This document shows positions 37,923 to 64,000 of a stretch of DNA of 64,000 bases, in pieces. Position numbers and translations under genes: made by a program. Origin of the DNA: Dictyostelium discoideum (Eukaryota); assembly GCA_000004695.1 (NCBI GenBank), contig CM000155.2, positions 1,920,001 to 1,984,000 on the forward strand. The letters are read 5' to 3'. Position 1 is the stretch's first letter. The number at the start of each line of letters is the position of its first letter. The notes under the pieces were generated by a model. That model did no database searches and was not told the DNA's origin. It saw nothing but the letters and a program-made list of their open reading frames with translations.

Positions 37923-38192
37923 ATTGATTTTTTTGATTTTCATCTTCTTGTTGTGATGAAGAAGATTGTTGTAAAATGTTTTTATGTTTATTTATAAATT
38001 TATTTGTATTTTTTAATTCTTCATTCTCTTCTAATAATTTCAAAAATTTTGTATTCAATTGATCTAATGATAATTGTAATGATTCTTTTTCTTGTATAAC
38101 TTTCATCATATTAGATCTATAAGTATTTTCTTTAGATTCAAACTCTTTATTCATTTGAATTTTTACATTTCTAATTAAATTATCAGCATCAA

Positions 38193-38286
<94 letters not shown>

Positions 38287-38616
38287 TTGAGTTACCAAAG
38301 ATGTCACTGCTGCTGTTGTTGTTGTTGTCGTTGCTTTTGTTGAGTTTTTAAGTGTTTGTTGCTGTTGTTGTTGTTGTTGTTTTTGTTGTGGTTGTTGTTG
38401 TGGAGGTGGTGGTAAAGGTTTTTTAGTTATTGGGGTTGGTTTTGTATCTTGTAAAAATGGATTCAAATCATCATCATTCTTACTTGGATTGGATTCTTTA
38501 TTGTTACAAGAAGATGTGGATGTATTTAAGAATGGGTTTAATTCCTCTTCTGATTTATTATTTATACTAGAGTTTTGCATTAAAAATGGATTTAATTCAT
38601 CTTCATTTTTAAGTGT

Positions 38617-38690
<74 letters not shown>

Positions 38691-38906
38691 GCTGGAGTTG
38701 ATTGTTATTTGAGGTTTGTTTTGATAAAAATGGGTTTAAATAGTCATCTTCACCTACTAAATGTTGTTTTGTATTATTACTAATAGGTATTGGAGGTAAC
38801 TTCTTATTCGATATATCATCGTTTGATGTTAAAAATGGGTTATCATCACTTGAAAAATTATTATTATTATTGTTATTTGTTAAAGGAGTTACAGGTAGTG
38901 ATTTTC

Positions 38907-38993
<87 letters not shown>

Positions 38994-39099
38994 TATTATT
39001 TTTGTTATTATTAGAAAGTGGATCAGTTATTAAATTGGCCCCATCTACTATTTTGTTGTTTGATGGTAAATCAAATGGGTTATCTTCAAAAGGGTTCAT
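36745..39099 (-). CDS. Hypothetical 784-aa protein with at least 6 N-terminal NPF motifs (EH-domain ligand type), long poly-Asn/poly-Gln tracts, a coiled-coil-like middle and a structured C-terminal region.
   Basis: A single ORF from ATG. It contains NPFEDNPFD, NPFLTSND, NPFLSKQ, NPFLMQN, NPFLNTST and NPFLQDT. (CAA)n at 38614..38690 encodes ~26 Gln. The C-terminus (...DMFLGYLRRIGKFNDVITLQKQ...LNQWCVNFGKQ...EAFVEILTINMAPLDLIEQCARMI...) has non-repetitive composition. Confidence 0.6.
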
Positions 39100-39384: not shown

Positions 39385-39453
<69 letters not shown>

Positions 39454-39494
39454 ATAATTATTTAATTTTTTAATTTTTTAATTTTTTTAATTTT

Positions 39495-42400
39495 TTAGTT
39501 TGTAACACCAAAATTTAAATCATATCTACTTGAAGCTATCATTGGATCTAAAATAAGAATATTTGAAATTGTTGCTTTTCCATTAACCATTGTTGCAGCG
39601 TTATAAGGAATAGATGAAGTTGGTAGAGGTGATGGAATAATTGAAAGTGTAACTGAATCAGCTGTAATAATATATTGTTGATTTTGGTATGGTGGATTAA
39701 TGAATTTAAATAGACCTAATGAATCGGTTGATTGTTTTTGAATTAAGGTACCATTGGCAAATAATAAACTAACGGCAACACCTTGTTTACCTTGCTCCCA
39801 TGGTTCTTGAATACCATTACCATTTGTATCAATAAAGACAATACTACCAAGGGTAATTGGTTTTGGAGAACAGTGGGCTACAAGTTGACCAAGACCCGAT
39901 GCTTTGCCAAAGGTAACTGGATTGACTGTATCTGAATTATCAGTGAGATAAACTTGGAATGAAGAACGAAGGGTACCATTGTTATTGTTATAAAATTTGA
40001 CTACACCTTCGAATACAGTTGTAGCATCGAATGAAGCTGATGCAACCTCTGGGAAACCTGGAACTTGGAAAACTGAAAGACCACCAGTATCATCATGACC
40101 AATTTGACCTTTTCTAAAGTTATCATTATAGAATTCACCAGTACCTGGACCTTCAATTTGACCTTTATAACCTGATGGACCTGTATGAGAACCAATAGCA
40201 CCACCACATTTACCATCTCTTTCTGGGACATAAACTCCATTGACCAAACAAATACGTAAAATATCTGGTGCCGATACGAAACTACCTTGATCACCTTCTC
40301 TATCTCTGATACCGATAACCATATCATTACCATCGAATGTAATTGATGCAACGACTGGTTGTGGATTGTCATCGATATCAATCCATGGTTGCCATGTACT
40401 GTTACGACAGACTGTATTTGAATCAAAATTCTTACAACCTCTGCTATAATTTAATGGTAGAGTGACAACCTTTGTGAAGACTTGAGTGACTGGATCAAAA
40501 GAGTGAATGATTGCATTCATATCTGGGATGGTTGGACCACCACAAACTGAACCTGTATAATATTTACCTTGATGGAAGTTGATTGCAAATGGTTGCCAGA
40601 AATATTTGTCTTGGGTTCTTGTACAACCAAATGGAACCGTAAATCTTTGAGTGTTTGTTTTATTTGGCTGAGTATCCAATGGCATTATAATAATATCACG
40701 GGTTTGTAAACCAACTACTGCCAAACTACGAGTGTATGGATTAATAACAATACCACCAAATGCTGTACGATAAATCTCTGAAATTCTAAAATCTGTATCT
40801 AAACTAATGTCCATACCTAAAATATCATCAGTACCTTCTGTATCTTTTTCAAGGAAAGAATCAATTCTAGTGTATAGTGAATTTCTACCGGTTACAGTAT
40901 CGATCTTATAGATTGCATTAAGACGTCCAGGGCCATAATCTGTACCAAACTTGGTGAATGCTGAGGCGTAAAGTTGTTTCTTACTACGATCATAGGCTAG
41001 ACCATAGGTTGTACCTGATTCATAATAGAAGGATAGTGGAGTGATTTGATTATGTTGAGTAGAATTGTATGGGAACATAACGATAACTGGTTCACCAGTG
41101 TTTGGACCATTTTCATCACTATTACCAATGACATAACAACCTACTGAAAGATTTGGTACATCATTACATGTTTCTTCATTGGTGATGAAAGAGAAATCTG
41201 CAAATCCTGCTGGAACGGTGTAGGTGTTTGGAAGAATTACTGAAGTTGGTCTACATGTTTCAACCTTATCGCCTGAACCAGTTGGAAGTGCTGGCGTACC
41301 TACTGTAATCAAATAATTACCATCTTGTACAAGATTAAAGAATGAATATGAACCGGTTGAATCTGTAAGAGTGGAGTTGAAAGGAGTCTTACTATCGGCA
41401 TAGTAAATATAAACTGGAATCTTTGAAAGTGGTATATCTTTAGCTGTACCAAATTGACCACTGATATCGTATTTACCGTTACAATTGTAATCTTTGAAAA
41501 CTCTACCAGTGACATTCTTAAGACTTGGTCTAATTACACCAAGATTAACTGGTTTACATTTATATTGAGAGAATGGACAAACTATATTATCATCATCATT
41601 TGCATCCAATGTAAACATTGTAGAATTAAAGGTACCCAATAATAAAGAGTTTGTTGGTGAGCCAGTTACATTGAATTTAGTTGTTAGCCAACCAGATCCT
41701 GATGGAGGAATCAAGGTGAGTGTATAATTACCAAGTTGAAGGTTTGGAATTGAGAAACTACCATTGGCTGCCACTGGTGAGGTTGCAACAACAGTACCAA
41801 TTGGAACTGTAGTTAAACCACCATTAACGGCTTGATTGGCAGATTTCAATTGAACAGTAAAGTTACCTGGTGGAACTGAACCCATTTCAAAGAGACCATC
41901 TTGTAAAACATCATTCCAAACGTAACCAAATACACCCATTGTAGTGAAAACAAAACCTGCATCATGAGTAGGGTCAAGGTATGGTGCTGTATATAAATTT
42001 GATTCATTATCAAATCTTGAACGAATATCGGATGATGTAATAATAAGATTAAATGCATCAGTTCTACCATTAGGGAATGCATTGTTTTCTACTTGATTTG
42101 ATGTTGACACTAATTTGGTTGGAGTGATTGAATAACCGGCTGGTATGACAAATTGAACGATATAATAACCTAAACGTACATTATCAATGTAATAGTAACC
42201 TTGAGAGTTTGATACTGCTTTCAATGGGTTACCATCTGAACCCATAACTGGTTGACCATTGTTATTTAAGAGAAGTACAGTAACATTTGGTAATGGTTTT
42301 TCATCAATATCAAAGATACCATTCTTGTTGGTATCAATAAAGGTTCTAACACCCAATGCAACATATGGGGTATTTATACCAACATTGGCTTTGTTGTACG

Positions 42401-45400
42401 CTTGTCTACAACGACTAACACTTGATACAGTTACTACATCTGGTCCTGGCATTGTGAATATTGGTGTTGTACGATTTAATGGGAAGAATCTATTGTTGAC
42501 TAAACCAGTAGTGGTGAAATTTGAAATGATATAACGAGGTGGAATTGAAACTGTCATATAGTAGGAACCTGGTGGAACGTTTGGAATTGAATATTTACCA
42601 TTTACATCTGTGACTGCCATTTGAATTGGTTTGCCGAAAATATCATTTGGAGTGGAACCATCTGCATTAAAGAGTGTAAGGTTTACATATGGGAAACCAA
42701 TTTCATTGATATCAAAGATACCATTGAGATTACCATCGGACCATGATTGTTGACCAATACTGTAACATGGGATTACAATACCTGCATCATTGTTTAGATT
42801 TTTCCAAGTATTTGATCCATAGGTTGTATCCAATGTAAAGTTATTCAAAACAATTACTTGACCGTTTGCTGTGGCTCTTGACATACCACCTGTCAAAATT
42901 GGTGAATAAGTAGTACCTGCAATATATTTGGTACTATTGGCAGGTATAGTTAATCTTACTACATAGGAAGGTCCACTTGATACATTTTGGAATAAATATT
43001 TACCATTGGCAGTTGTTACTTGACTTGAAATTGGTTTACCTAAAATATCCAATGCTGGTGAAAGATCTGAAGATACTAATAATTCAACTTTAATACCATC
43101 TGCACCAACTTCACCATTGTCTAATAGTGAATTATTATTTGAATCAATCCAAATAGTATCACCTAAATATATTTTTTTTTTTCATCAAATTATATTAAAA
43201 AAACAAATTATTAATAAAAATAAAAATTTTAATAAAAATAAAATTATATTTAAAAAAAATTTAATACTTTACCAATAATAAATGATTGTGGAACATAACC
43301 AACATTGAATGTATAATTCTTATTGAAAGCCTTGAGATTATCTGATGGAACTGTACGTAATGTATTATTATAAATTTCAATATCTAAACATAATGTATTA
43401 TTACCTTTTAAGAAATTATCTGGACCTGATATACCAAGTTGATAGGTTGGATTTGGTGGTATGAAAGTTAAACAATCGTTACCAGTTTCTAAATTATCAA
43501 AAATGTAGAAACCATTGGCATCAGTTTGTTTGGTCTTTGAACCAATTGAGATTGTAACATTTGCAATACCTGGTTCATCTACATCTTTCTTACCATTGTT
43601 GTTAATATCTAAGAATACAAATCTACCAATTGCTATCTTGGGTGGAACAATACCAAAGTCTTGATAGATATTGATATAGTTTGCTTTAAGATTCCAAGTT
43701 GAATCAATTAGCATAAGTGCTTTATCATTTTGACTGAGATCAATACTGATGTAACCAGTTGCATTTGCCTTGTTATCTTGAAGAGTATTATTGGAGATTG
43801 TAAAACCAACTGGTGGAGTAATTGCTAAATTGTAAACTCCTGGGTATAAATTATCGAAAATGTAGATACCACTTGGATTTGTTACGGTAGATGTTATAAA
43901 GTTAAAGTTACTATCATAAATTCTAACAGTAATACCTTCAACTGCAGGTTCATATGATTCAGCTCCACCATTACCATTCTTATCTACCCAAATATATGTT
44001 CCAACTGCATATTTGTATGGGGCTAAACCAAAATTAACAGTGGCATCTTGATAGGTATCTTCAGTATGACTTGGAATTGAGAATCTTTGAACGGTTGGAC
44101 TGAATACAGAGACATTGGTACAAGCAATAGCATTAGAATCACCTCTATTAAATGTTGTTGGAGTTAAGAGAGTTGGATAAAATTCTTTTGGTACAGTGAG
44201 TGAAACGCAATAATTTCCTGGAGCTAAATGGGTAAAGATGTATGTTCCATTGGCATCTGTTGTTGTTGTTGCAATGGTTTGTGATAGGTTAGAACCACTT
44301 CTTAAGAAAACTGTAATATTTGCCATACCCATTTCACTTGGTTGCATTTGACCATCTTTATTGTCATCATTGAAAACAATGAAACCAATACTCAAATATT
44401 CTGTGGTGAAACCAGCATCAATATTTCTATTAATATAATAAGTTGGTACTTTATCTGATGCAATCGATGCTGTAACATCTGGACTATTGATTCTAAGAGA
44501 AACTGATACACGTCCTCTACTGTTTACTTTAGATTGATCTGTTATTGGACTTGGTTTCAATTGTTTTGGATAACCAAATTGTACAACATAATCTCCTTGT
44601 TCAACATTAACGAAATGATAGATACCTTGTGAATCAGTGGTTGTGGTCATGAGAGTTGTATTGAATAAATTCAAAAGTCTAACGGTAATATTAACCAATG
44701 GAGTATCTTGGGCACTATCAAATAGACCATTTCCATTAACATCACGGAATACAAAGTCACCAATTGAAAAGATTGGTGGAATTAAACCACCATTAATATC
44801 ATTTCTACAAATTGGATCACCATAATTAATAGTGAAACAACTTAAACCTTGAGGGTTGAATACAGAGTCATTGGTTATCTTTGTCATTATATAGTTATCG
44901 ATAATGGATAAACTTACACAATAATTTCCAACAACTAAATTATCGAATCTATAATTTCCATTTACATCAGTTGTTGTAGTTTGAGTTGGTAAAGCGGTGT
45001 TATTTGGAGTAAGAGTAATGGTTAAGTTTCTATATGGTTCTTCGGTTGGTTCTGGATGACCATTACCGTTAATATCAATCCAAACATATTTACCAACACA
45101 ATAAAGTGGAACTAAACCGAGGTTTGCGTCATTTTTATTTCCAGATAGCGTGAAACAATATTGTTGTGTGTTTGAATCACCACCAATTGGTGAGAATGGT
45201 GAATCATTTGATTTTGTAACTGCTTTGAAATTTTGTGGAACTGATGCAGTTAAACAATAATTACCGGCTAATAATTGACCAAAACTATATTTACCTTGTG
45301 AGTTTGTTGTTGTTGTTTTTATTTCTGAGTTTCCAGTGTTAACAAGAGAAAGAGAAACATTTGCTTGAAGTGGATCATCTAAATCTTTAATACCATTATT

Positions 45401-48400
45401 AAGTTTATCAATCCAAACATTATCACCTAATGTATAGAATGGAGTTAAACCTACATTGACATTAGTTAAATTGGTAGCATTAACATTGAAACAATATGTT
45501 GTTACATTTTTAGAGGTTGATAAAATAAATGGAGAGTCTAAAGATGTATTTACAAATTTGTAAAGTGCAGAATTAATTGGACCTGCGCTCATACAATAGT
45601 TACCTGGTGCAACATCAACAAATTGGTAGAATCCATTTGCGTTTGTAATGGTTGAATTGATTTGTTTTCCTTGTGAATCTAAAAGTGTCATGGTAATGTT
45701 TGGAACACCAGCCGATGTTGGTAAACGTTTACCAGTATTTAATGGATCTAACCAAGCTGTATCACCAACAGTCAAAAGTGGAGTGAGACCAAGGTTGGCA
45801 TTAGTAATTGATGATGTTGTAAGGTCGAAACAATAGATTGTACTCTTGTTAAATGGTGAATCTTGAGATTGAATAACTTGTTGATAGTGTGGTGGAATAA
45901 TCATCTTGATACAATATGATCCTGGTACTTGATCTTTAAATGCGTACTTACCGTTTTCATCTGTAATTGTGTTGGCAATGGAAGTTCCATTTGGTGAGAA
46001 CAATGAAACTGAAACACCTGGTAATAATGGTTCATCTAATTCTTTAATACCATTATTATTCTTTTCGATCCAAACATATTGACCAATATCAAGTGTTGAT
46101 ACGAAACCTGGATTAACATTAGTGTTGTTATATGGTATATGACCATTTAATCTAACACAATACTGACCATTAATGAATGGAGAATCTTTGCTACCTGTTA
46201 CTGGAATTGTACCTAATGGAGTTGTTGCATTGAGACAATATTTACCCATTAATAATGGATAGAACATGTAGTTACCATTAATATCTGTTTTGGTTGTTTC
46301 TATAACATTTCCTAGTGGGTCAATAAGTGATAATTCTACATCGGAAAGGAATTCATTATCTTGTCTCTTTCCATCGTTATTAATATCTAACCAAGCAATA
46401 TAACCAACTCCAAATATAGTATCCAAACCAAGGTTAACATCTGACATATCACCAAATAATGGGAAACAAAAACCACCTGTAGAGTTGGTAACTGAATCAT
46501 CAGAGTCGACAACAACAATATATCCTGGTGGAACTTCAAATTGAACACAATAGTCTGCACTTGGTAATAAATTAGGTACAACATAGCCACCTTTATCATC
46601 AGATCTTGTAGCAGCTAAAATGTTTCCACTTACCTTGTCATATAATTGTACTGTTACATTTGGAAGAAGTAGATCACTAGATGAAAGGAATTTTGATAAA
46701 TCTAAATCGACCCATGTTGTACCATCGACCACAAGGTATGGAATCAAACCAATATTGGCATTCAATACATTAGAATCTGTGACTGCGAAACAATATTGAA
46801 GTTCTGCTAATGGATTAGTTGGAGATGTATCAGTGAAGTTTTTGAATGGCGATACTTCAGAATATGAATCTGCTAAATAATTGGATGGTACTGTAGCTCT
46901 TACGCAATAACTACCTGGTTGTATATCATTGAATTGATATTTACCAGAAGAGTTGGTAATAGTTGTTTCAATTAAATTACCATTGTTATCATAGAGAGAC
47001 ATTGTTACATTTGGTACCAATAATGAATCATTTCTACGAACTCCATTATTTAAATTATCTAACCATGCATCAGAACCAATATTATAAAGTGGAATTAAAC
47101 CTAAATTGGCATTTGTAATTGATTTATCAAGTAAATCGAAACAATATTTGACATCTGAATCGAATGGAGAGTCTTTTGATTGTGCAACTTGTTCATAGTG
47201 TGGTGGAATAACCATTTGTACACAATATGATCCTGGTACTTGATCTTTTAATGCATATTTACCATTTTCATCTGTTACAAGATTGGCAATTGATGTTCCA
47301 TTTGGTGAGAAAATATGAATTTGTATGCCTGGTAATAATGGTTCATCTGATTCTTCTTTACCATTGTTATTCTTATCGATCCAAACATATTGACCAATAT
47401 CGAGTGTTGGTACAAAACCTGGATTGACATCAGTTCTATCAATTGGTTGTGGTCCTGTGAATGTTAAACAATATTTATTATTGACAAAGAGATTATCTGA
47501 ACTACCAGTAACTGGAATTGAACCTATTGGAGTTGTTGCAATGATACAATAATCACCTTGTGGAAGGTTATCAAATTTGTAATTACCTGATTCATTGGTT
47601 GTTGTAGTTTGTAATACTTTACCATTTGAATCTTGTAATGATAACTCTACACCTGGTAAGAACTCATTGTCTTCTTTATTACCATTATTATTCTTATCTA
47701 ACCATGATACTGATCCGATACTATTGAGTGGAGAAATACCAATATTGATATTTGGATTTGATTGTGTTAATAAGAAACAATATTTACCTGTTGTTTGGTC
47801 AACAACTGAGTCTTTTGATGGTTGTACGAAATGATATTTAATTGGAGTTGTTGTTTCAATACAATAATTGCCTGGTAATAAATGGTCAAAGTGGTAGTTT
47901 CCATTTGAATCTGTTTGTGTAGTAGATGATTGACCTGATCCAGTATTGGTAAGTTTAATTTGGAATTCTGATTTACCAACATCAACTGGTTTATCGTAGA
48001 CATTGTTATTATTTGAATCAATCCAAACAATAGTTCCAATTTTAAGTAATGGAATTAAACCAAGATCTTGATTATCTGTTGGTCCACTAACTGTGAAACA
48101 TGATTCAACATCTGATTGGGAAGATAATGAAAATGGTGAGTCTGAAGATTTGTTAACTGGGGAATAATCCGAAGGAACAGATACTTTGATACAATAATCG
48201 CCTGGCTCAACATCATCGAATTGATATTTACCAATATCGTCAGTTGGAATTGATTTAATAATTGTATTTCCATTTTTATCAGTAAGTGTTAATACAATAT
48301 TTGGAATACCTGGGGAATTTTCTAATTGAATACCAGTGTTGAATGAATCTAACCAAACAGTATCACCAATTGGATAAAGTGGAATTAAACCAAGATTGGC

Positions 48401-51400
48401 GTTTGCAATTGATTTATCTACTAAATCGAAACAATATTTGACATCTGAATCGAATGGTGAATCTTCTGATTGTGCAACTTGTTTATAATGATCTGGAATA
48501 ACCATTTGTACACAATATGGTCCTGGTACTTGATCTTTTAATGCGTATTTACCATTTTCATCTGTTACAAGATCTGCGATCTTAGTTCCATTTGGTGATG
48601 TGATAATAACTTGAACACCTGGTAATAATGGTTCATCTGGTTCTTCTTTACCATTGTTATTCTTATCGATCCAAACATATTGACCAATATCGAGTGTTGA
48701 TACAAAACCTGGATTGACATCAGTTCTATCGATTGGTTGTGGTCCTGTGAATGTTAAACAATATTTATTATTGACAAATAGATTATCTGGACTGCTTGTT
48801 ACTGGAATTGAACCGATTGGAGTTGTTGCGACGATACAATAATCACCTGGTAATAAATTATCAAATTTGTAATTACCTGATTCATCAGTTGTTGTTGTAT
48901 CTAATACTTTGCCACTTGGATCTTGTAATGATAACTCTACACCTGGTAAGAATTCATTATCTTCTTTCTTACCATTATTATTTTTATCTAACCATGATAC
49001 TGATCCGATACTATTGAGTGGTACTAAACCGATATTGATATTTGGATTTGATTGTGTTAATTTGAAACAATATTCACCTGTTGAGTCGACAACTGAATCA
49101 TCTGAAGTTACAACAAATTGGTATTGATCTGGTTGTGTTACTTTGATACAATAATCACCTGCTAATAAATGATTGAAATTATAGTTACCATCAACATCTG
49201 TTTGAATTGTTGATGTTTCACCATTACCACTGTTGGTTAATGTAATTGATACATCTGATTTACCGATATCACTTGGTTGTTCAAACTTATCATTGTTATT
49301 TGAATCAATCCAAACAATGGTACCGATTTCATAGAATGGTGATAAACCTAAGTTTTGATTATCTAATGGTCCTGAAACTTTGAAGCATGATTTAACAATT
49401 GATTCATTCGAAGTTGGAGAGAATGGTGAATCTGATGATGTATTGACTGCTTGATAGGTATCACTTGGAAATTCTGCTTCAATACAATAATCACCTGGTG
49501 GAACATCTTCGAATTGATATTTACCATCTGGTCCTGAAGTTGTTGATTGAATAACTTTATCATCTTTATCGACTAAATTTAATTCAATACCTTCGACACC
49601 TGGTGAATCATCAGTACGTTTACCAGTATTGAACGGATCTAACCAAACACTATCACCAATTGGATAAAGTGGAATTAAACCAAGATTGGCGTTTGTAATT
49701 GATGTATCTACTAAATCGAAACAATATTTGACATCTGAATCGAATGGTGAATCTTCTGATTGTGCAACTTGTTTATAATGATCTGGAATAATCATTTGTA
49801 CACAATATGATCCTGGTACTTGATCTTTTAATGCATATTTACCATTTTCATCTGTTACAAGATTGGCAATTGATGTTCCATTTGGTGATGTGATAATAAC
49901 TTGAACACCTGTTAATAATGGTTCATCTGATTCTTCTTTACCATTGTTATTCTTATCGATCCAAACATATTGACCAATATCGAGTGTTGATACAAAACCT
50001 GGATTGACATCAGTTCTATCGATTGGTTGTGGTCCTGTGAATGTTAAACAATATTTATTATCGACAAAGAGATTGTCTGGACTACCAGTAACTGGAATTG
50101 AACCGATTGGAGTTGTTCCGACGATACAATAATCACCTGGTAATAAATTATCAAATTTGTAATTACCTGATTCATCAGTTGTTGTTGTTGTATCTAATAC
50201 TTTACCATTTGAATCTTGTAATGATAATTCTACACCTGGTAAGAATTCATTGTTTTCTCTCTTACCATTATTATTCTTATCTAACCATGATACTGATCCG
50301 ATACTATTGAGTGGTACTAAACCGATATTGATATTTGGATTTGATTGTGTTAATTTGAAACAATATTCACCTGTTGAGTCGACAACTGAATCATCTGAAG
50401 TTACAACAAATTGATATTTATTTGGTTCTGTTGCTTTGATACAATAATCACCTGCTAATAAATGATTGAAATTGTATTCCCCATCAGCATCTGTTTGAAT
50501 TGTTGATGTTTCACCATTACCACTGTTGGTTAATGTAATTGATACATCTGATTTTTTAATATCACTTGGTTGTTCAAACTTATCATTGTTATTTGAATCA
50601 ATCCAAACAAATGTACCGATTTCATAGAATGGAGTAACACCAATTGGTGGTTTGACATCATGATCAGTGATTGTGAAACAATATTTAACTGTGACGAAAC
50701 TATCATTTGTTGAATCAGCCGAGAATGGTGAATCTGATGATGTATTGACTGGTTTGTATTGATCTTTTGGAATATCAGCTTCAACACAATAATCACCTGG
50801 TGGAACATCTTCGAATTGATATTTACCATCTGGTCCTGATTTGGTGTTTGTAATTTCATTTCCATCTTTATCAGTTAATCTAATTGTAATGTCTGATAAT
50901 GGTGGTGAATCATCAGTTTGTTTACCAGTATTGAATGGATCTAACCAAACTTTATCACCAACGTTGAATAATGGAATTAAACCAAGATTGGCATTTGTAA
51001 TTGATTTATCTACCAAATCGAAACAATATTTGACATCTGAATCGAATGGTGAGTCTTCTGATTGTGCATCTTGTTTATAATGTGGTGGAATAACCATTTG
51101 TACACAATATGATCCTGGTACTTGATCTTTTAATGCATAATTACCATTTTCATCTGTTACAAGATCTGCGATCTTAGTTCCATTTGGTGATGTGATAATA
51201 ACTTGAACACCTGGTAATAATGGTTCATCTGGTTCTTCTTTACCATTGTTATTCTTATCGATCCAAACATATTGACCAATATCGAGTGTTGATACAAAAC
51301 CTGGATTGACATCATATCTATCGATTGGTTGTGGTCCTGTGAATGTTAAACAATATTTATTATTGACAAATAGATTGTCTGGACTACCAGTAACAGGGAT

Positions 51401-54400
51401 TGAACCGATTGGAGTTGTAGCGACAATACAATAATCACCTGGTAATAATTCGTAAAATAGGTAATAACCTGATTCATCGGTTGTTGTTGTTTCAAATAAA
51501 GTACCATTTGGATCTTGTAATGATAATTCTACACCTGCTAATGATTCTCCAGCAGTTGCTAAACCATCATTATCTTTATCTAACCAAGCGAATGTTCCGA
51601 TACTATTGAGTGGTACTAAACCGATATTGATATTTGGATTTGATTGTGTTAATTTGAAACAATATTCACCTGTTGAATTTACAACTGAATCATCTGAAGT
51701 TACAACAAATTGATATTTATTTGGTTCTGTTACTTTGATACAATAATCACCTGCTAATAAATTATTGAATTTGTAATTACCATTTGAGTCTGTTTGAATT
51801 GTTGATGTTTCACCATTACCACTGTTGGTTAATGTAATTGATACATCTGATTGTTTAATATCACTTGGTTGTTCAAACTTATCATTGTTATTTGAATCAA
51901 TCCAAACAAATGTTCCGATTTCGAGGAATGGAATTAAACCAAGATTGGCATTGTTAACTGGCTCTGTAACTGTGAAACAATATCTAGATTTAATTGGTTC
52001 AATCGAAGAAGTTGGGAGTGGAAGAACTACCGAGAATGGTGAATCTGATGAGGTATTTTCTACTTGATATTTTCTTGGGACAGATGCTTCAATACAATAA
52101 TCGCCTGGTGGAACATCTTCGAATTGATATTTACCATTTGGTCCTGATGCAGTTGATTGAATTGAATTTCCGTATTTATCAATGAGTGTGAGTGGAATAC
52201 CTTCTACTCCTGGTGAATCATCAGTACGTTTACCAGTATTGAATGGATCTAACCAAACACTATCACCAAGGTTGTAAAGTGGAACTAAACCAAGATTTGC
52301 GTTTGTAATTGATTTATCTTCTAAATCGAAACAATATTTGACATCTGAATCGAATGGTGAATCTTCTGATTGGTTAACTTGTTTATAATGATCTGGAATA
52401 ATCATTTGTACACAATATGATCCTGGTACTTGATCTTTTAATGCATATTTACCATTTTCGTCTGTAAAAAGATTGGCAATTGATGTTCCATTTGGTGATG
52501 TGATAATAACTTGAACACCTGGTAATAATGGTTCATCTGGTTCTTCTTTACCATTGTTATTCTTATCGATCCAAACATATTGACCAATATCGAGTGTTGG
52601 TACAAAACCTGGATTGACATCAGTTCTATCGATTGGTTGTGGTCCTGTGAATGTTAAACAATATTTATTATTGACAAAGAGATTGTCTGGACTACCAGTA
52701 ACTGGAATTGAACCGATTGGAGTTGTTCCGACGATACAATAATCACCTGGTAATAAATTATCAAATTTGTAATTACCTGATTCATCGGTTGTTATTGTTT
52801 GTAATACAGTGCCATTTGGATCTTGTAATGATAATTCTACACCTTCTAATGATTCTTCAGCAGTTGCTAAACCATCATTATCTTTATCTAACCAAGCGAA
52901 TGTTCCGATACTATTGAGTGGTACTAAACCGATATTGATATTTGGATTTGATTGTGTTAATTTGAAACAATATTCACCTGTTGAGTCGACAACTGAATCA
53001 TCTGAAGTTACAACAAATTGATATTTATTTGGTTCTGTTGCTTTGATACAATAATCACCTGCTAATAAATGATTGAAATTGTATTCACCATCAGCATCTG
53101 TTTGAATTGTTGATGTTTCACCATTACCACTGTTGGTTAATGTAATTGATACATCTGATTTTTTTATATCACTTGGTTGTTCAAACTTATCATTGTTATT
53201 TGAATCAATCCAAACAAATGTACCGATTTCATAGAATGGAGTAACACCAATTGGTGGTTTGACATCATGATCAGTGATTGTGAAACAATATTTAACTGTG
53301 ACGAAACTATCATTTGTTGAATCAGCCGAGAATGGTGAATCTGATGATGTATTGACTGGTTTGTATTGATCTTTTAGAATATCAGCTTCAACACAATAAT
53401 CACCTGGTGGAACATCTTCGAATTGGTATTTACCATCTGGTCCTGATTTGGTGTTTGTAATTTCATTTCCATCTTTATCAGTTAATCTAATTGTAATGTC
53501 TGATAATGGTGGTGAATCATCAGTTTGTTTACCAGTATTGAATGGATCTAACCAAACTTTATCACCAACGTTGAATAATGGAATTAAACCAAGATTGGCA
53601 TTTGTAATTGATTTATCTACCAAATCGAAACAATATTTGACATCTGAATCGAATGGTGAGTCTTCTGATTGTGCATCTTGTTTATAATGTGGTGGAATAA
53701 CCATTTGTACACAATATGATCCTGGTACTTGATCTTTTAATGCATAATTACCATTTTCATCTGTTACAAGATCTGCGATCTTAGTTCCATTTGGTGATGT
53801 GATAATAACTTGAACGCCTGGTAATAATGGTTCGTCTGATTCTTCTTTACCATTGTTATTCTTATCGATCCAAACATATTGACCAATATCAAGTGTTGAT
53901 ACAAAACCTGGATTGACATCATATCTATCGATTGGTTGTGGTCCTGTGAATGTTAAACAATATTTATTATTGACAAATAGATTATCTGGACTGCTTGTTA
54001 CTGGAATTGAACCGATTGGAGTTGTTGCAACGATACAATAATCGCCTGGTAATAAATTATCAAATTTGTAATTACCTGATTCATCAGTTGTTGTTGTTTC
54101 TAATACTTTACCATTTGAATCTTGTAATGATAACTCTACACCTGGTAAGAATTCATTGTCTTCTTTATTACCATTATTATTCTTATCTAACCATGATACT
54201 GATCCGATACTATTGAGTGGTACTAAACCGATATTGATATTTGGATTTGATTGTGTTAATTTGAAACAATATTCACCTGTTGAGTCGATAACTGAATCAT
54301 CTGAAGTTACAACAAATTGGTATTGATCTGGTTGTGTTGCTTTGATACAATAATCACCTGCTAATAAATGATTGAAATTATAGTTACCATCAACATCTGT

Positions 54401-57400
54401 TTGAATTGTTGATGTTTCACCATTACCACTGTTGGTTAATGTAATTGATACATTTGATTTTCCGATATCACTTGGTTGTTCAAATTTATCATTGTTATTT
54501 GAATCAATCCAAACAATGGTACCGATTTCATAGAATGGTGATAAACCTAAGTTTTGATTATCTAATGGTCCTGAAACTTTGAAGCATGATTTAACAATTG
54601 ATTCATCTGAAGTTGGAGAGAATGGTGAATCTGATGATGTATTGACTGGTTTGTATTGATCATTTGGAATTGTTGCTTCAATACAATAATCACCTGGTGG
54701 AACATCTTCGAATTGATATTTACCATCTGGTCCTGATGTTGTTGATTGAATAACTTTACCATCTTTATCGACTAAATTTAATTCAATACCTTCTACACCT
54801 GGTGAATCATCAGTACGTTTACCAGTATTGAATGGATCTAACCAAACAGTATCACCAATTGGATAAAGTGGAATTAAACCAAGATTGGCATTTGTAATTG
54901 ATTTATCTACCAAATCGAAACAATATTTGACATCTGAATCGAATGGTGAGTCTTCTGATTGTACAACTTGTTTATAATGTGGTGGAATAACCATTTGTAC
55001 ACAATATGGTCCTGGTACTTGATCTTTTAATGCATAATTACCATTTTCATCTGTTACAAGATCTGCGATCTTAGTTCCATTGGGTGATGTGATAATAACT
55101 TGAACACCTGGTAATAATGGTTCATCTGATTCTTCTTTACCATTGTTATTCTTATCGATCCAAACATATTGACCAATATCGAGTGTTGATACAAAACCTG
55201 GATTGACATCAGTTCTATCGATTGGTTGTGGTCCTGTGAATGTTAAACAATATTTATCATCTACAAAGAGATTATCTGGACTGCTTGTTACTGGAATTGA
55301 ACCGATTGGAGTTGTTGCAACGATACAATAATCACCTGGTAATAAATTATCAAATTTGTAATTACCTGATTCATCGGTTGTTGTTGTATCTAATACTTTA
55401 CCATTTGAATCTTGTAATGATAATTCTACACCTGGTAAAAATTCATTATCTTCTTTATTACCATTATTATTCTTATCTAACCATGATACTGATCCGATAC
55501 TATTGAGTGGTACTAAACCGATATTGATATTTGGATTTGATTGTGTTAATTTGAAACAATATTCACCTGTTGAGTCGACAACTGAATCATCTGAAGTTAC
55601 AACAAATTGATATTTATTTGGTTCTGTTACTTTGATACAATAATCACCTGCTAATAAATGATTGAAATTATAGTTACCATCAACATCTGTTTGAATTGTT
55701 GATGTTTCACCATTACCACTGTTGGTTAATGTAATTGATACATCTGATTTTTTTATATCACTTGGTTGTTCAAAGTTATCATTGTTATTTGAATCAATCC
55801 AAACAAATGTACCGATTTCATAGAATGGAGTAACACCAATTGGTGGTTTGACATCATGATCAGTGATTGTGAAACAATATTTAACTGTGACGAAATTATC
55901 ATTTGTTGAATCGACTGAGAATGGTGAATCTGATGATGTATTGACTGGTTTGTATTGATCTTTTAGAATATCAGCTTCAACACAATAATCACCTGGTGGA
56001 ACATCTTCGAATTGATATTTACCATCTGGTCCTGATTTGGTGTTTGTAATTTCATTTCCATCTTTATCAGTTAATCTAATTGTAATGTCTGATAATGGTG
56101 GTGAATCATCAGTTTGTTTACCAGTATTGAATGGATCTAACCAAACTTTATCACCAACTTTGAATAATGGAATTAAACCAAGATTGGCATTTGTAATTGA
56201 CTCATCGATTAAATCGAAACAATATTTGACATCTGAATCGAATGGTGAGTCTTCTGATTGTGCAACTTGTTTATAATGTGGTGGAATAACCATTTGTACA
56301 CAATATGATCCTGGTACTTGATCTTTTAATGCATAATTACCATTTTCATCTGTTACAAGATCTGCGATCTTAGTTCCATTGGGTGATGTGATAATAACTT
56401 GAACACCTGGTAATAATGGTTCATCTGATTCTTCTTTACCATTGTTATTCTTATCGATCCAAACATATTGACCAATATCGAGTGTTGATACAAAACCTGG
56501 ATTGACATCATATCTATCGATTGGTTGTGGTCCTGTGAATGTTAAACAATATTTATCGTCGACAAATAGATTATCTGGACTGCTTGTTACTGGAATTGAA
56601 CCGATTGGAGTTGTTGAGACGATACAATAATCACCTGGTAATAAATTATCAAATTTGTAATTACCTGATTCATCGGTTGTTGTTGTATCTAATACTTTAC
56701 CATTTGAATCTTGTAATGATAATTCTACACCTGGTAAAAATTCATTATCTTCTTTATTACCATTATTATTCTTATCTAACCATGATACTGATCCGATACT
56801 ATTGAGTGGTACTAAACCAATATTGATATTTGGATTTGATTGTGTTAATTTGAAACAATATTCACCTGTTGAGTTGACAACTGAATCATCTGAAGTTACA
56901 ACAAATTGGTATTGATCTGGTTGTGTTACTTTGATACAATAATCACCTGCTAATAAATGATTGAAATTATAGTTACCATCAACATCTGTTTGAATTGTTG
57001 ATGTTTCACCATTACCACTGTTGGTTAATGTAATTGATACATTTGATTTTCCGATATCACTTGGTTGTTCAAATTTATCATTGTTATTTGAATCAATCCA
57101 AACAATGGTACCGATTTCATAGAATGGTGATAAACCTAAGTTTTGATTATCTAATGGTCCTGAAACTGCGAAACATGATTTAACGATTGATTCATCTGAA
57201 GTTGGAGAGAATGGTGAATCTGATGATGTATTGACTGCTCGTAAGATATCATTTGAAATTGTTGCTTCAATACAATAATCACCTGGTGGAACATCTTCAA
57301 ATTGATATTTACCATTTGGTCCTGAAGTTGTTGATTGAATAACTTTACCATCTTTATCGACTAATTGTAATTCAATACCTTCGAGACCTGGTGAATCATC

Positions 57401-60400
57401 AGTACGTTTACCAGTATTGAATGGATCTAACCAAACAGTATCACCAATTGGATAAAGTGGAACTAAACCGAGATTTGCGTTTGTAATTGATTCATCGATT
57501 AAATCGAAACAATATTTGACATCTGAATCGAATGGTGAGTCTTCTGATTGTGCAACTTGTTTATAATGTGGTGGAATAATCATTTGTATACAATATGATC
57601 CTGGTACTTGATCTTTTAATGCATAATTACCATTTTCATCTGTTACAAGATCTGCGATCTTAGTTCCATTGGGTGATGTGATAATAACTTGAACACCTGG
57701 TAATAATGGTTCATCTGATTCTTCTTTACCATTGTTATTCTTATCGATCCAAACATATTGACCAATATCGAGTGTTGATACAAAACCTGGATTGACATCA
57801 TATCTATCAATTGGTTGTGGTCCTGTGAATGTTAAACAATATTTATCATCAACAAATAGATTATCTGGACTGCTTGTTACTGGAATTGAACCGATTGGAG
57901 TTGTTGCGACGATACAATAATCACCTGGTAATAAATTATCAAATTTGTAATTACCTGATTCATCAGTTGTTGTTGTTTCTAATACTTTACCATTTGAATC
58001 TTGTAATGATAATTCTACACCTGGTAATGATTCTCCCTCACTTGCTAAACCATCATTATCTTTATCTAGCCATGCGAACGATCCGATACTATTGAGTGGT
58101 ACTAAACCAATATTGATATTTGGATTTGATTCTGTTAATTTGAAACAATATTCACCTGTTGAGTTGACAACTGAATCATCTGAAGTTACAACAAATTGGT
58201 ATTTATTTGGTTCTGTTGCTTTGATACAATAATCACCTGCTAATAAATGATTGAAATTATAGTTACCATCAACATCTGTTTGAATTGTTGATGTTTCACC
58301 ATTACCACTGTTGGTTAATGTAATTGGAACATCTGATTGTTTAATATCACTTGGTTGTTCAAACTTATCATTGTTATTTGAATCAATCCAAACAAATGTT
58401 CCGATTTCGAGGAATGGAATTAAACCAAGATTGGCATTGTTAACTGGCTCTGTAACTGTGAAACAATATCTAGATTTAATTGGTTCAATTGAAGAAGTTG
58501 GGAGTGGAAGAACTACCGAGAATGGTGAATCTGATGAGGTATTTTCTACTTGATATTTTCTTGGGACAGATGCTTCAATACAATAATCACCTGGTGGAAC
58601 ATCTTCGAATTGATATTTACCATTTGGTCCTGATGCAGTTGATTGAATTGAATTTCCGTATTTATCAATGAGTGTTAGTGGAATACCTTCTACACCTGGT
58701 GAATCATCAGTACGTTTACCAGTGTTGAATGGATCTAACCAAACAGTATCACCAAGGTTGTAAAGTGGAACTAAACCAAGATTTGCGTTTGTAATTGATT
58801 TATCTTCTAAATCGAAACAATATTTGACATCTGAATCGAATGGTGAGTCTTCTGATTGTGAAACTTGTTTATAATGATCTGGAATAATCATTTGTACACA
58901 ATATGATCCTGGTACTTGATCTTTTAATGCGTATTTACCATTTTCATCTGTTACAAGATCTGCGATCTTAGTTCCATTTGATGATGTGATAATAACTTGA
59001 ACACCTGGTAATAATGGTTCATCTGATTCTTCTTTACCATTGTTATTCTTATCGATCCAAACATATTGACCAATATCAAGTGTTGATACAAAACCTGGAT
59101 TGACATCAGTTCTATCGATTGGTTGTGGTCCTGTGAATGTTAAACAATATTTATTATTGACAAATAGATTATCTGGACTGCTTGTTACTGGAATTGAACC
59201 GATTGGAGTTGTTGCAACGATACAATAATCACCTGGTAATAAATTATCAAATTTGTAATTACCTGATTCATCGGTTGTTGTTGTATCTAATACTTTACCA
59301 TTTGAATCTTGTAATGATAATTCTACACCTGGTAAAAATTCATTGTCTTCTTTCTTACCATTATTATTCTTATCTAACCATGATACTGATCCGATACTAT
59401 TGAGAGGTACTAAACCAATATTGATATTTGGATTTGATTCTGTTAATTTGAAACAATATTCACCTGTTGAGTCGACAACTGAATCATCTGAAGTTACAAC
59501 AAATTGATATTTATTTGGTTCTGTTGCTTTGATACAATAATCACCTGCTAATAAATGATTGAAATTATAGTTACCATCGACATCTGTTTGAATTGTTGAT
59601 GTTTCACCATTACCACTGTTGGTTAATGTAATTGATACATCTGATTTTTTTATATCACTTGGTTGTTCAAACTTATCATTGTTATTTGAATCAATCCAAA
59701 CAAATGTACCGATTTCATAGAATGGAGTAACACCAATTGGTGGTTTGACATCATGATCAGTGATTGTGAAACAATATTTAACTGTGACGAAATTATCATT
59801 TGTTGAATCGACTGAGAATGGTGAATCTGATGATGTATTGACTGGTTTGTATTGATCTTTTGGAATATCAGCTTCAACACAATAATCACCTGGTGGAACA
59901 TCTTCGAATTGGTATTTACCGTCTGGTCCTGATTTAGTGTTTGAATTTTCATTTCCATCTGGTCTTGATTTGGTTTTTGTAATTTCATTTCCATCTTTAT
60001 CAGTTAATCTAATTGTAATGTCTGATAATGGTGGTGAATCATCAGTTTGTTTACCAGTATTGAATGGATCTAACCAAACTTTATCACCAACGTTGAATAA
60101 TGGAACTAAACCAAGATTGGCATTTGTAATTGATTTGTCGTCTAAATCGAAACAATATTTGATATCTGAATCGAATGGTGAGTCTTCTGATTGTGAAACT
60201 TGTTTATAATGTGGTGGACTAACCATTTGTACACAATATGATCCTGGTACTTGATCTTTTAATGTGTATTTACCATTTTCATCTGTTACAAGATTGGCAA
60301 TTGATGTTCCATTTGGTGATGTGATAATAACTTGAACACCTGGTAATAATGGTTCATCTGATTCTTCTTTACCATTGTTATTCTTATCGATCCAAACATA

Positions 60401-63400
60401 TTGACCAATATCGAGTGTTGATACAAAACCTGGATTGACATCAGTTCTATCGATTGGTTGTGGTCCTGTGAATGTTAAACAATATTTATCATCAACAAAT
60501 AGATTATCTGGACTGCTTGTTACTGGAATTGAACCGATTGGAGTTGTTACAACGATACAATAATCGCCTGGTAATAAATTATCAAATTTGTAATTACCTG
60601 ATTCATCAGTTGTTGTTGTATCTAATACTTTACCATTTGAATCTTGTAATGATAATTCTACACCTGGTAAAAATTCATTATCTTCTTTATTACCATTATT
60701 ATTCTTATCTAACCATGATACTGATCCGATACTATTGAGTGGTACTAAACCAATATTGATATTTGGATTTGATTGTGTTAATTTGAAACAATATTCACCT
60801 GTTGAGTCGACAACTGAATCATCTGAAGTTACAACAAATTGATATTTATTTGGTTCTGTTGCTTTGATACAATAATCACCTGCTAATAAATGATTGAAAT
60901 TGTATTCACCGTCAACATCTGTTTGAATTGTTGATGTTTCACCATTACCACTGTTGGTTAATGTAATTGATACATCTGATTTTCCAATATCACTTGGTTG
61001 TTCGAATCTATCATTGTTATTTGAATCAATCCAAACAATGGTACCGATTTCATAGAATGGAGTAACACCAATTGGTGGTTTGACATCATGATCAGTGATT
61101 GTGAAACAATATCTAACTGTGACGAAATTATCATTTGTTGAATCGACTGAGAATGGTGAATCTGATGATGTATTGACTGGTTTGTATTGATCTTTTGGAA
61201 TATAAGCTTCAACACAATAATCACCTGGTGGAACATCTTCGAATTGGTATTTACCATCTGGTCCTGAAGTTGTTGATTGAATAACTTTACCATCTTTATC
61301 AGTTAATCTAATTGTAATGTCTGATAATGGTGGTGAATCATCAGTTTGTTTACCAGTATTGAATGGATCTAACCAAACTTTATCACCAACTTTGAATAAC
61401 GGAACTAAACCAAGATTGGCATTTGAAATTGATTCATTGACTAAATCGAAACAATATTTGACATCTAAATCGAATGGTGAGTCTTCTGATTGTGCAACTT
61501 GTTTATAATGTGGTGGAATAATCATTTGTACACAATATGATCCTGGTACTTGATCTTTTAATGTGTATTTACCATTTTCATCTGTTACAAGATTGGCAAT
61601 TGATGTTCCATTTGGTGATGTGATAATAACTTGAACACCTGGTAATAATGGTTCATCTGGTTCTTCTTTACCATTGTTATTCTTATCGATCCAAACATAT
61701 TGACCAATATCGAGTGTTGATACAAAACCTGGATTGACATCAGTTCTATCGATTGGTTGTGGTCCTGTGAATGTTAAACAATATTTATTATTGACAAATA
61801 GATTATCTGGACTGCTTGTTACTGGAATTGAACCGATTGGAGTTGTTGTGACAATACAATAATCACCTGGTAATAAATTATCAAATTTGTAACTACCTGA
61901 TTCATCGGTTGTTGTTGTATCTAATACTTTACCATTTGAATCTTGTAATGATAATTCTACACCTGGTAAAAATTCATTGTCTTCTTTCTTACCATTATTA
62001 TTCTTATCTAACCATGATACTGATCCGATACTATTGAGTGGTACTAAACCGATATTGATATTTGGATTTGATTGTGTTAATTTGAAACAATATTCACCTG
62101 TTGAGTCGACAACTGAATCATCTGAAGTTACAACAAATTGGTATTGATCTGGTTGTGTTGCTTTGATACAATAATCACCTGCTAATAAATGATTGAAATT
62201 ATAGTTACCATCAACATCTGTTTGAATTGTTGATGTTTCACCATTACCACTGTTGGTTAATGTAATTGATACATCTGATTTTAAAACATCACTTGGTTGT
62301 TCGAATTTACCATTGTTATTTGAATCAATCCAAACCATGGTACCAATTTCATAGAATAGTGATAAACCTAAGTTTTGATTGTCTAATGGTCCTGAAACTG
62401 CGAAACATGATTTAACGATTGATTCATCTGAAGTTGGAGAGAATGGTGAATCTGATGATGTATTGACTGGTTTGTATTGATCATTTGGAATTGTTGCTTC
62501 AATACAATAATCACCTGGTGGAACATCTTCGAATTGATATTTACCATCTGGTCCTGATGTTGTTGATTGAATGACTTTGCCATCTTTATCGACTAATTGT
62601 AATTCAATACCTTCGACACCTGGTGAATCATCAGTACGTTTACCAGTATTGAATTGATCTAACCAAACAGTATCACCAATTGGATATAATGGGATTAAAC
62701 CAAGATTGGCATTTGTAATTGACTCATCGATTAAATCGAAACAATATTTGACATCTGAATCGAATGGAGATTCTTCTGATTGTGCAACTTGTTTATAATG
62801 ATCTGAAATAATCATTTGTACACAATATGATCCTGGTACTTGATCTTTTAATGCGTATTTACCATTTTCATCTGTTACAAGATCTGCGATCTTAGTTCCA
62901 TTTGATGATGTGATAATAACTTGAACACCTGGTAATAATGGTTCATCTGGTTCTTCTTTACCATTGTTATTCTTATCGATCCAAACATATTGACCAATAT
63001 CAAGTGTTGATACAAAACCTGGATTGACATCAGTTCTATCGGTTGGTAGTGGTCCTGTGAATGTTAAACAATATTTACCATCGACAAATAGATTATCTGG
63101 ACTGCTTGTTACTGGAATTGAACCGATTGGGGTTGTTGCAGAAATACAATAATCACCTGGAAGTAAATTATCAAAGTAATAGTTACCATCGGAATCTGTT
63201 GTTATTGTTTGAATAACAATACCATTTGGATCTTGTAATGATAATTCTACACCTGGTAAAAATTCATTGTCTTGTCTCTTACCATCATTATTCTTATCTA
63301 ACCATGATACTGATCCGATACTATTGAGTGGTACTAATCCAATATTGATATTTGGATTTGATTCTGTTAATTTGAAACAATATTCACCTGTTGAGTCGAC

Positions 63401-64000
63401 AACTGAATCATCTGAAGTTACAACAAATTTGTATTGATCTGGTTCTGTTACCTTGATACAATAATCACCTGCTAATAAATGATTGAAATTGTATTCACCG
63501 TCAGTATTGGAGATTGTTGAATACATTTCACCATTACCACTGTTGGTTAATGTAATTGATACATTTGATTTTCCGATATCATTTGGTTGTTCAAACTTAT
63601 CATTGTTATTTGAATCAATCCAAACAATGGTACCGATTTCATAGAATGGTGATAAACCTAAGTTTTGGTTATCTAATGGTCCTGAAACTGCGAAACATGA
63701 TTTAACAATTGAATTATCTGAAGTTGGAGAGAATGGTGAATCTGATGATGTATTAACTGATTGATAGGTATCATTTGGAATTGTTGCTTCAATACAATAA
63801 TCACCTGGTGGAACATCTTCGAATTGATATTTACCATCTGGCCCTGATGTTGTTGATTGAATAACTTTACCATCTTTATCGACTAATTGTAATTCAATAC
63901 CTTCGAGACCTGGTGAATCATCAGTACGTTTACCAGTATTGAATGGATCTAACCAAACAGTATCACCAATTGGATATAATGGAATTAAACCAAGATTGGC
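39495..64000 (-). CDS. Giant colossin-like protein, at least 8000 aa in this window. The N-terminus lies beyond coordinate 64000. Exons are >64000..43273 (repeat array) and 43162..39495 (unique C-terminal ~1220 aa). Dictyostelium colossin A is the nearest family I recall.
   Basis: The frame of the 6758-aa ORF stays open to the window edge. The M at 63526 is an internal Met. Donor G|GTAAAG at 43272 and acceptor TTTAG|GT at 43163 give split codon G|GT and splice ...PQSFIIG to DTIWIDSNNN..., which reproduces the repeat motif (PIGDTVWLD). Repeated modules carry LPGVxVxLxDxNGxxIxTTxTDxxGxYxFxxLxPGDYC, typical of Cna B-type / SdrD B-like beta-sandwich domains. Confidence 0.8.
43300..64000 (-). repeat. 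Coding tandem repeat array. There are at least 16 units of ~1290-1303 bp (about 430 aa, 5 modules each) at about 90-99% nucleotide identity, and the array continues past the window edge.
   Basis: Out-of-frame ORF copies recur with a fixed period, for example MLLELNRLELL... at 48796, 50098, 52708, 53995, 55240, 56539, 57829, 59182 and 60472. Identical 79-aa copies occur at 50841, 53448 and 56037. The protein units are near-identical (PFYEIGTIVWIDSNNNDKFEQPSDI...). Confidence 0.9.

Follow-up and report, generated by a model that had tools for sequence, protein, structure and literature searches.

A giant SdrD_B repeat gene of Dictyostelium discoideum, probably colA (colossin A), and evidence for concerted evolution of its tandem array

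Structure and identity of the giant gene

The window analyzed in this study is a stretch of 64,000 nt of Dictyostelium discoideum DNA (GenBank assembly GCA_000004695.1, contig CM000155.2, positions 1,920,001 to 1,984,000 of the forward strand), and all coordinates given below are positions within it. Its upper end is occupied by a giant minus-strand open reading frame (ORF) made of tandem units, which on sequence evidence appears to belong to colA (colossin A, DDB_G0292696), a gene of D. discoideum AX4 chromosome 6, and to cover its central and 3' parts. Stop counts per frame revealed a single stop-free frame of 6916 codons running on the minus strand from 64000 down to 43253, and the remaining two minus frames contained 333 and 893 stops over the same interval. 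The array-region DNA has a G+C content of about 32%; with this composition and these stop counts, an open frame of 6916 codons cannot be attributed to chance. The frame was still open at the upper end of the window (64000), therefore the gene extends beyond it. The complete colossin A would measure about 11,100 aa, so that about seven further units would lie upstream.

The raw ORF terminates at a stop at 43250..43252 (preceded by GKVLNFF). This stop is in frame and lies inside an intron of 110 nt (43163..43272, minus strand, GT..AG, 94.5% A+T), which was recognized from the sequence, the restored frame and motif, and the alignment across the junction. Position 43272 is the G of the GTAAAG donor and 43163 is the last base of the TTTAG acceptor. 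Removal of the intron preserved the frame and rebuilt the start of an SdrD_B domain, with SFIIG joined to DTIWIDSNNN at the junction. The alignment over the junction was free of gaps with both a Polysphondylium violaceum protein (KAF2069556.1; 45% identity, 308 columns) and a second amoebozoan protein. A gene end at the stop at 43250 was ruled out by the splice sites, the restored frame and the orthologue alignment. Position 43273 is thus best read as the last base of an exon, from which the gene is predicted to run 3.8 kb further via the intron.

The terminal exon (39495..43162, minus strand) was delimited by translation, Pfam and a domain census, and comprises 1222 codons followed by a TAA stop at 39495..39497. 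Five SdrD_B domains lie entirely within it, as does the greater part of another (domain 64), which lies across the exon junction. Their order is SdrD_B 64-68, a beta-propeller and SdrD_B 69 (39552..39866), and the Pfam SdrD_B model matched the exon with 201.4 bits in six stretches. The part of colA inside the window amounts to 8131 codons, with the frame intact over 24.4 kb after splicing. A run of more than 50 A on the coding strand was observed about 50 nt past the stop codon (within 39400..39494, minus strand); long A runs are typical of Dictyostelium intergenic DNA.

The giant ORF was placed as colA from gene numbering, the number of intervening ORFs and its orthologous C-terminal architecture. 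The reference point is the ORF at 20179..21723 (plus strand), 18 kb from the giant gene, which was identical over 514/514 aa to DDB_G0292680 (XP_629567.1) of D. discoideum AX4. Its identity to the counterpart in a second D. discoideum strain was 99.8%, and to those of other Dictyostelium species 94.6-98.4%. DDB_G0292680 is a CCDC93 homologue, of which this ORF forms the last exon. Approximately six to seven gene-sized ORFs lie between this exon and the giant gene. The colA gene has been described as DDB_G0292696, 'Colossin A slug protein', and its Cna_B domain was listed as a candidate for horizontal transfer (PMC3188802). A missense variant of colA has been reported at position 1,984,519 of NC_007092.3 (PMC10755179). 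D. discoideum colA and the window gene share the chromosomal neighborhood of DDB_G0292680, and nothing points to a different gene. Neither of two protein searches returned a near-identical protein, and the libraries searched seem to lack the deposited colA entry. The C-terminal 561 aa gave only six distant matches in a database of 5.8 billion proteins, with identities of 23-30% except for a short match of 56% over 9% of the query.

An earlier note on this DNA, made from the sequence alone, had described a single giant minus-strand coding frame of tandem units continuing past 64000, and both points agree with the stop counts and the open upper end. It had taken 43273 as the lower boundary, which must be revised, since this is an exon edge followed by the 110-nt intron and 1222 further codons. 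The same note had called the product comparable to the Dictyostelium colossins; the colossin architecture was recovered, and by position and architecture the product would be colossin A itself.

Repeat array and exchange among its units

Units were cut by anchoring on the conserved peptides NANLGL and DIGQYVWIDKNNNG, which yielded 14 recognizable units of 429-445 aa, or 1290-1335 nt. DNA autocorrelation showed peaks at 1290, 1299, 1308, 2589, 3897 and 5232 nt, and the main spacings of repeated exact 40-mers were 1299, 1290, 2589, 2607, 1308 and 1335 nt. Within the gene, these exact 40-mers were confined to the region from about 47.1 kb to 64 kb. Tandem Repeats Finder was run with a maximum period of 500 nt, and its output here was limited to the A+T-rich intron and one duplication of 36 nt; the 1.3-kb array was shown by autocorrelation and anchored alignment instead.

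Twelve units (U01-U12), each encoding four SdrD_B domains designated types A, B, C and D, form a homogenized core (48404..64000, minus strand), which was defined by segmentation, the identity matrix, 40-mers and Pfam. Most of the core is covered by the repeated exact 40-mers. U01 lies at the window edge and lacks only its first codon. The pairwise DNA identity among U01-U12 ranged from 83.6 to 97.5%, reaching at least 95% in 11 and at least 90% in 24 of the 66 pairs. A partner at 95% or more was found for each of U02-U12, and the best partner of U01 was 92% identical. The core units fall into three subtypes, alpha (U01, 02, 06, 08 and 12), beta (U03, 04, 07, 09 and 11) and gamma (U05 and 10), so that the order from U01 to U12 is alpha, alpha, beta, beta, gamma, alpha, beta, alpha, beta, gamma, beta, alpha.

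Two further units follow the core in the identity matrix. U13 (47114..48403, minus strand) is about 80% and U14 (45803..47113, minus strand) about 62% identical to it, and the synonymous divergence (dS) was 0.44 between U12 and U13 and reached about 0.9 for U14. Both units sit at the 3' edge of the array and are in decay. The 3' end of the long exon (43273..45802, minus strand) consists of diverged, non-homogenized domains, namely SdrD_B 57-63 and the start of 64 in a census with a custom hidden Markov model (HMM), and repeated exact 40-mers were absent from this segment.

No two units were identical. The closest pair, U04 and U07, differed by 32 substitutions and a 36-nt indel, and the longest exact run common to two units was 244 nt. 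All length differences between units were multiples of three. The 36-nt indel reflects an in-frame tandem duplication in U04 (59914..59996, minus strand, 2.3 copies), detected by Tandem Repeats Finder and the unit alignment. U04 alone carries the resulting 12 extra residues (...KTKSRPDGNENS...) in a loop of the A-type domain, giving a length of 445 aa, where the remaining beta units have 433 aa. Some alternative-frame ORFs, few in number, recurred in identical form at spacings of 1299, 2589, 5232, 6486 and 10386 nt; these are by-products of the repeat.

Comparison with P. violaceum separated the array from the C-terminal part of the protein. For D. discoideum domains 1-52, a partner in the same protein was 86-100% identical, except for domains 49-50 (64-66%), and the best P. 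violaceum match of the array domains reached just 52-72%. The A-B-C-D unit is also present in the P. violaceum protein, where it recurs every 428-433 aa and the array domains share 69-90% identity among themselves. Domains 58-69 of D. discoideum pair one-to-one and in order with P. violaceum domains 13-24, and for these the identity across species (38-55%) exceeds that within the protein (28-43%). Likeness within species in the array, together with orthology at the C-terminus, is what one classically expects where concerted evolution acts on the array alone.

The units themselves are recombination mosaics. Every 150-nt segment of a unit had a partner at 97-100%, and the best partner switched every 150-450 nt. 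The four-gamete test failed for 45% of site pairs (185 informative sites), and the incompatibility was far lower between neighboring sites. A statistic modeled on the pairwise homoplasy index (PHI-like) was 0.241, as compared with 0.447 +/- 0.010 after permutation, and none of 1000 permutations gave a value that low. Homogenization is uneven and domain-selective. The D domain is near-uniform, being at least 91.7% identical across all units, and the A and B domains are kept as three subtypes, with 74-84% identity between subtypes. The ratio of nonsynonymous to synonymous divergence (dN/dS) among units was 0.2-0.8 and the dS of close pairs was 0.05-0.12, which points to selection on the units that is purifying but relaxed. 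In sum, concerted evolution of the array is supported by the sequence comparisons.

The description of the array in the earlier note therefore stands in part. Its count of at least 16 near-identical units was too high, as 14 are recognizable and 12 form the homogenized core in the window. An identity above 95% applies to the 11 core pairs that reach 95%; others fall to 83.6%, U13 to about 80% and U14 to about 62%. The proposed period of about 1.29-1.30 kb matches the peaks at 1290 and 1299 nt, but the unit range extends to 1335 nt. Likewise, of the interval 43273-64000 proposed as a near-identical array, 48404..64000 is homogenized, but 43273..45802 holds diverged domains. The recurrence of identical alternative-frame ORFs was confirmed for a few of them, at the spacings given above. 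The proposed exchange among units is borne out by the within- versus between-species comparison and the recombination test, but 'very recent' was too strong a term, because 2.5% of sites differ between even the most similar units, and dS of close pairs is 0.05-0.12.

SdrD_B domains, C-terminal propeller and neighboring genes

When one unit was searched against Pfam, SdrD_B (PF17210) was matched with 229.9 bits (E = 5.4e-69) in four stretches, the gathering cut-off being 29.7. Weaker matches included CarboxypepD_reg, SpaA and CarbopepD_reg_2, which are related families of the transthyretin clan. Cna_B (PF05738) and Big_9 gave no Pfam match at E <= 0.01, although 21 families were matched. Among the families that had been suggested for the unit, SdrD_B is thus the best and CarbopepD_reg_2 a weaker one, and Cna_B and Big_9 found no match at this threshold. 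An HMM built from the unit identified 69 SdrD_B domains in the 8131 aa, arranged mostly back to back with spacers of 0-21 aa. The sole large gap in this chain is a 456-aa insert between domains 68 and 69.

The nearest sequences in the PDB were Staphylococcus aureus SdrD (E = 5.7e-18) and Staphylococcus saprophyticus UafA. An AlphaFold2 model of a single D-type domain had a predicted local distance difference test score (pLDDT) of 96.1, and it superposed on SdrD B domains (10PS, 8VDK and 4JDZ) with template modeling (TM) scores of 0.85-0.89 and root-mean-square deviations of 1.9-2.4 Å. The TM scores against isopeptide CnaB2, pilin and SpyCatcher domains were only 0.55-0.64. Assignment to the isopeptide Cna_B class was ruled out by the missing Pfam match at E <= 0.01 and by this weaker fold match.

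The residues of the putative calcium loops are largely conserved over the 69 domains: D13 in 68, N16 in 59, G18 in 55, D48 in 48, G51 in all 69 and D81 in 59. The conserved motifs W-x-D-x-N-N-N-G...E/D, T-D-x-N/D-G-x-Y and S-x-D-S align with SdrD. The B domains of SdrG and SdrD bind three Ca2+, unfold only above 2 nN and depend on Ca2+ for their stability (PMC6232131).

A pair of cysteines at model columns 64 and 91 covaries among the domains. In D. discoideum, 61 domains have both, eight have neither and none has a single one; over six dictyostelid or amoebozoan proteins, D. discoideum included, the corresponding numbers are 152, 72 and 7. Neither Cys occurred in any of the 38 homologous bacterial or metagenomic domains examined. 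This distribution suggests that Cys64-Cys91 is a putative intradomain disulfide proper to the eukaryotic (dictyostelid) lineage. No transmembrane-like segment, LPxTG motif or serine-aspartate (SD) repeats were found in the 8131 aa, which contain 97 N-glycosylation sequons (N-x-S/T).

The insert between SdrD_B 68 and 69 contains a non-repeat domain of 441 aa (39858..41180, minus strand), characterized with AlphaFold2 and Foldseek. The AlphaFold2 model, obtained with an alignment of 42 sequences, had a pLDDT of 90.1, a predicted TM score (pTM) of 0.92 and 28 strands. Foldseek returned generic beta-propellers only (LRP2/LRP6 YWTD, YncE, BtuG and lactonase-like), with TM scores of 0.3-0.57. The domain is thus predicted with confidence to be a beta-propeller, probably with seven blades. 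It had no sequence match in Pfam, NCBIfam or the PDB.

Sequence relatives of the propeller numbered 1745 at E <= 1e-3 and 119 at E <= 1e-30. They nearly always adjoin SdrD_B domains and were distributed in Chloroflexota, Bacteroidota, Actinomycetota and the dictyostelid colossins A, C and D. Among the colossins, the propeller was found in colossin A of Cavenderia fasciculata and Heterostelium album, colossin C of Tieghemostelium lacteum and colossin D of H. album. It was also present in large SdrD_B proteins from metagenome-assembled genomes (MAGs) of Caldilineaceae, Ktedonobacteraceae, Cytophagaceae and Neomicrothrix. The closest relatives occupy the same C-terminal position, namely those of P. 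violaceum (55% identity), C. fasciculata colossin A (49%) and H. album colossin A (41%); in the 7796-aa colossin A of C. fasciculata the propeller lies at residues 7239-7675. The propeller of about 440 aa appears to be an unannotated domain family. Its combination with an SdrD_B stalk also in bacteria fits the published proposal of horizontal transfer (PMC3188802).

Several other ORFs in the window were inspected. The downstream neighbor of colA (36745..39099, minus strand) is an ORF of 784 aa with very long polyasparagine (polyN) and polyglutamine (polyQ) tracts. The full ORF, with these tracts, had no match in the protein database, where no D. discoideum entry for it was encountered. The C-terminal half of the ORF shares 46% identity with the hypothetical protein DLAC_06412 of T. 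lacteum; no colossin lies within 10 kb of the DLAC_06412 locus, therefore synteny is not indicated. A further gene is represented by the ORF at 30247..31338 (plus strand), which from its sequence alone we presume to encode a protein resembling tRNA-dihydrouridine synthase. Five other neighboring ORFs had no exact protein match, and their annotated models are probably spliced.

Interpretation and comparison with known systems

We consider it highly probable that the locus is colA, that it specifies a very long chain of Ig-like SdrD_B domains and that its units are kept alike by unequal crossing-over and gene conversion. Colossin A would be a secreted, glycosylated, rod-like and mechanically strong filament of the extracellular matrix of the multicellular slug. 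Each of its SdrD B-type domains would be stiffened by bound Ca2+, as are the B domains of staphylococcal SdrD and SdrG, and most domains may additionally be clamped by the dictyostelid-specific disulfide. The SdrD B fold is the mechanically strongest protein fold measured so far. The C-terminal propeller may serve as an attachment or recognition (binding) module. A role as structural protein of the slug is in agreement with the literature (PMC3188802).

As to its history, the SdrD_B domains are thought to be of bacterial origin, and the A-B-C-D unit of 1.3 kb would have been present already in the common ancestor with P. violaceum. Within D. discoideum the units would have been amplified and homogenized by the two exchange processes, with the array decaying toward its 3' edge and the last 12 domains evolving independently as ordinary orthologues.

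Several points weigh against this interpretation. The N-terminus of colA is beyond the window, and any signal peptide would be out of view. The choice of colA over another colossin was made by positional inference, from position and gene numbering, and from orthologous architecture. Ca2+ binding and the disulfide are deduced from sequence, and the first loop of the type A domain is weakened (WLDPFNTGKR), with F and T replacing two loop Asn. The comparison between species uses a partial P. violaceum protein, and independent, lineage-specific amplification without continuing conversion also makes units more alike within than between species.

The last point corresponds to a scenario in which the D. 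discoideum lineage underwent one burst of tandem duplication, after which the copies simply diverged without continuing gene conversion. Such a burst would account for the higher likeness within than between species, and no very recent exchange is demanded by the closest units, which differ by 2.5-5% with dS of 0.05-0.12. It is nevertheless an improbable explanation, because the nearest partner switches along the units and 45% of informative site pairs fit no single tree, with incompatibilities clustered by distance (PHI-like 0.241 versus 0.447, p < 0.001). It would also not lead one to expect D domains at 91.7% or more in all units beside A and B domains at 74-84% between subtypes, nor the same four-domain unit in P. 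violaceum, where it is internally homogenized as well. The units could instead owe part of their number and order to the assembly, with copies collapsed, expanded or shuffled. Units of 1.3 kb that are up to 97.5% identical invite such errors, and arrays of this kind defeat assemblers, as in P. violaceum, whose orthologue is annotated as partial, on an 11,963-nt contig that ends inside the array. We regard an artefact as unlikely too, though slightly less so than a burst. N bases are absent from the window, the frame stays open through 20.7 kb with every inter-unit indel a multiple of three, and neither frameshifts nor chimeric breaks were seen at the junctions. Moreover, every unit is unique and the longest exact common run, 244 nt, is shorter than a Sanger read; since the units can all be told apart, nothing compels the assembly to have collapsed them.

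That the ORF is a decaying or non-functional relic, neither translated nor selected, is very hard to believe. The fairly high dN/dS among units (0.2-0.8) would fit it. However, an open frame of 8131 codons at 32% G+C does not arise by chance beside frames with 333-893 stops, key structural residues are near-invariant over 69 domains, and orthologues of the same architecture have been kept across Dictyostelia. The literature furthermore describes a slug protein (PMC3188802). A more far-reaching proposal, which we put forward only tentatively and think doubtful at present, is that dictyostelids re-engineered the SdrD B fold by means of the covarying Cys64-Cys91 pair, probably a disulfide clamp, and a super-repeat kept by domain-selective gene conversion. 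Should strains also differ in the number of units or the order of subtypes, colA could adjust the mechanical properties of the slug sheath or matrix, and it would lend itself well to research on how a horizontally acquired domain evolves in concert.

The colA gene and its repeat nature were already known from the literature. The present result is the right label and a gene model, in which the array belongs to colA and the gene runs on through an intron for 3.8 kb past 43273, closing with a tail that includes the propeller. The analysis adds the unit count, the intron and true 3' end, a quantification of concerted evolution, the dictyostelid Cys pair and the unannotated propeller. In a limited literature search we found no paper on domain-selective homogenization with three subtypes, the dictyostelid Cys pair or the propeller family of about 440 aa, which may be undescribed. 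colA illustrates well how a stalk domain of bacterial adhesins, once taken up by a eukaryote, can be expanded into a protein of more than 8000 residues. Users of the genome should be cautious with short reads mapped to the array region and with variants called there.

Among the dictyostelids, the colossin A proteins of C. fasciculata (XP_004357925.1) and H. album (XP_020432806.1) end in the same order of diverged domains, propeller and final SdrD_B. Like the window gene, colossin A proteins are giant repeat ORFs of the Cna_B/SdrD_B type with the conserved Cys pair. Other dictyostelid colossins differ from it in having no homogenized 1.3-kb array; those of H. album and Synstelium show no strong period, and C. 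fasciculata colossin A has its own period of 122/246 aa instead of about 430 aa. The latter suggests an independent repeat amplification in another dictyostelid lineage.

The staphylococcal SdrD/SdrG B domains (4JDZ, 8VDK and 10PS) and UafA share with the window gene the SdrD_B family, the EF-hand-like D-x-N-x-N-G loop, further acidic positions that may be ligands and the arrangement as a tandem stalk. By analogy, a Ca2+-dependent mechanostable rod is likely to be the working principle common to Sdr B domains and colA. Unlike the microbial surface components recognizing adhesive matrix molecules (MSCRAMMs), colA within the window, which does not include its N-terminus, has no A-region ligand-binding domain, SD repeats or LPxTG. 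It has at least 69 domains instead of 2-5, an added Cys pair in most of them, a eukaryotic host and an intron. Membership in the MSCRAMMs was rejected, as neither LPxTG nor an (SD)n run occurs in the 8131 aa and the propeller is unmatched by the NCBIfam MSCRAMM models, against which the scanned relatives scored 19.6-63.4 bits, far below the cut-offs of 1700 and 2500. The CnaB domains of pilins and adhesins (Cna, SpaA and FbaB/SpyCatcher) have a related transthyretin-like or 'inverse Ig' beta-sandwich but match clearly less well. Historically, the colossin repeats were annotated as Cna_B.

Giant bacterial SdrD_B proteins, such as those of Caldilineaceae (MFN8488963.1 and MBX3015727.1) and of other MAGs, combine SdrD_B arrays with the propeller of about 440 aa at 28-39% identity, which fits a bacterial origin of the whole architecture. 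They are prokaryotic genes and differ from colA in that several copies of the propeller may occur, or it often lies toward the N-terminus, and no Cys pair was found in the 38 domains examined. Coding arrays that evolve in concert in other giant proteins include nebulin super-repeats, mucin, involucrin, and the bacterial Rib/alpha-like and Bap repeats. Like colA, such arrays have repeats that resemble one another more closely inside one gene than across species, and they show mosaic units, decay at the edges and in-frame variation of unit length. The unit of colA differs from theirs in being a super-repeat of four domains, the domain itself being bacterial and acquired by horizontal transfer.

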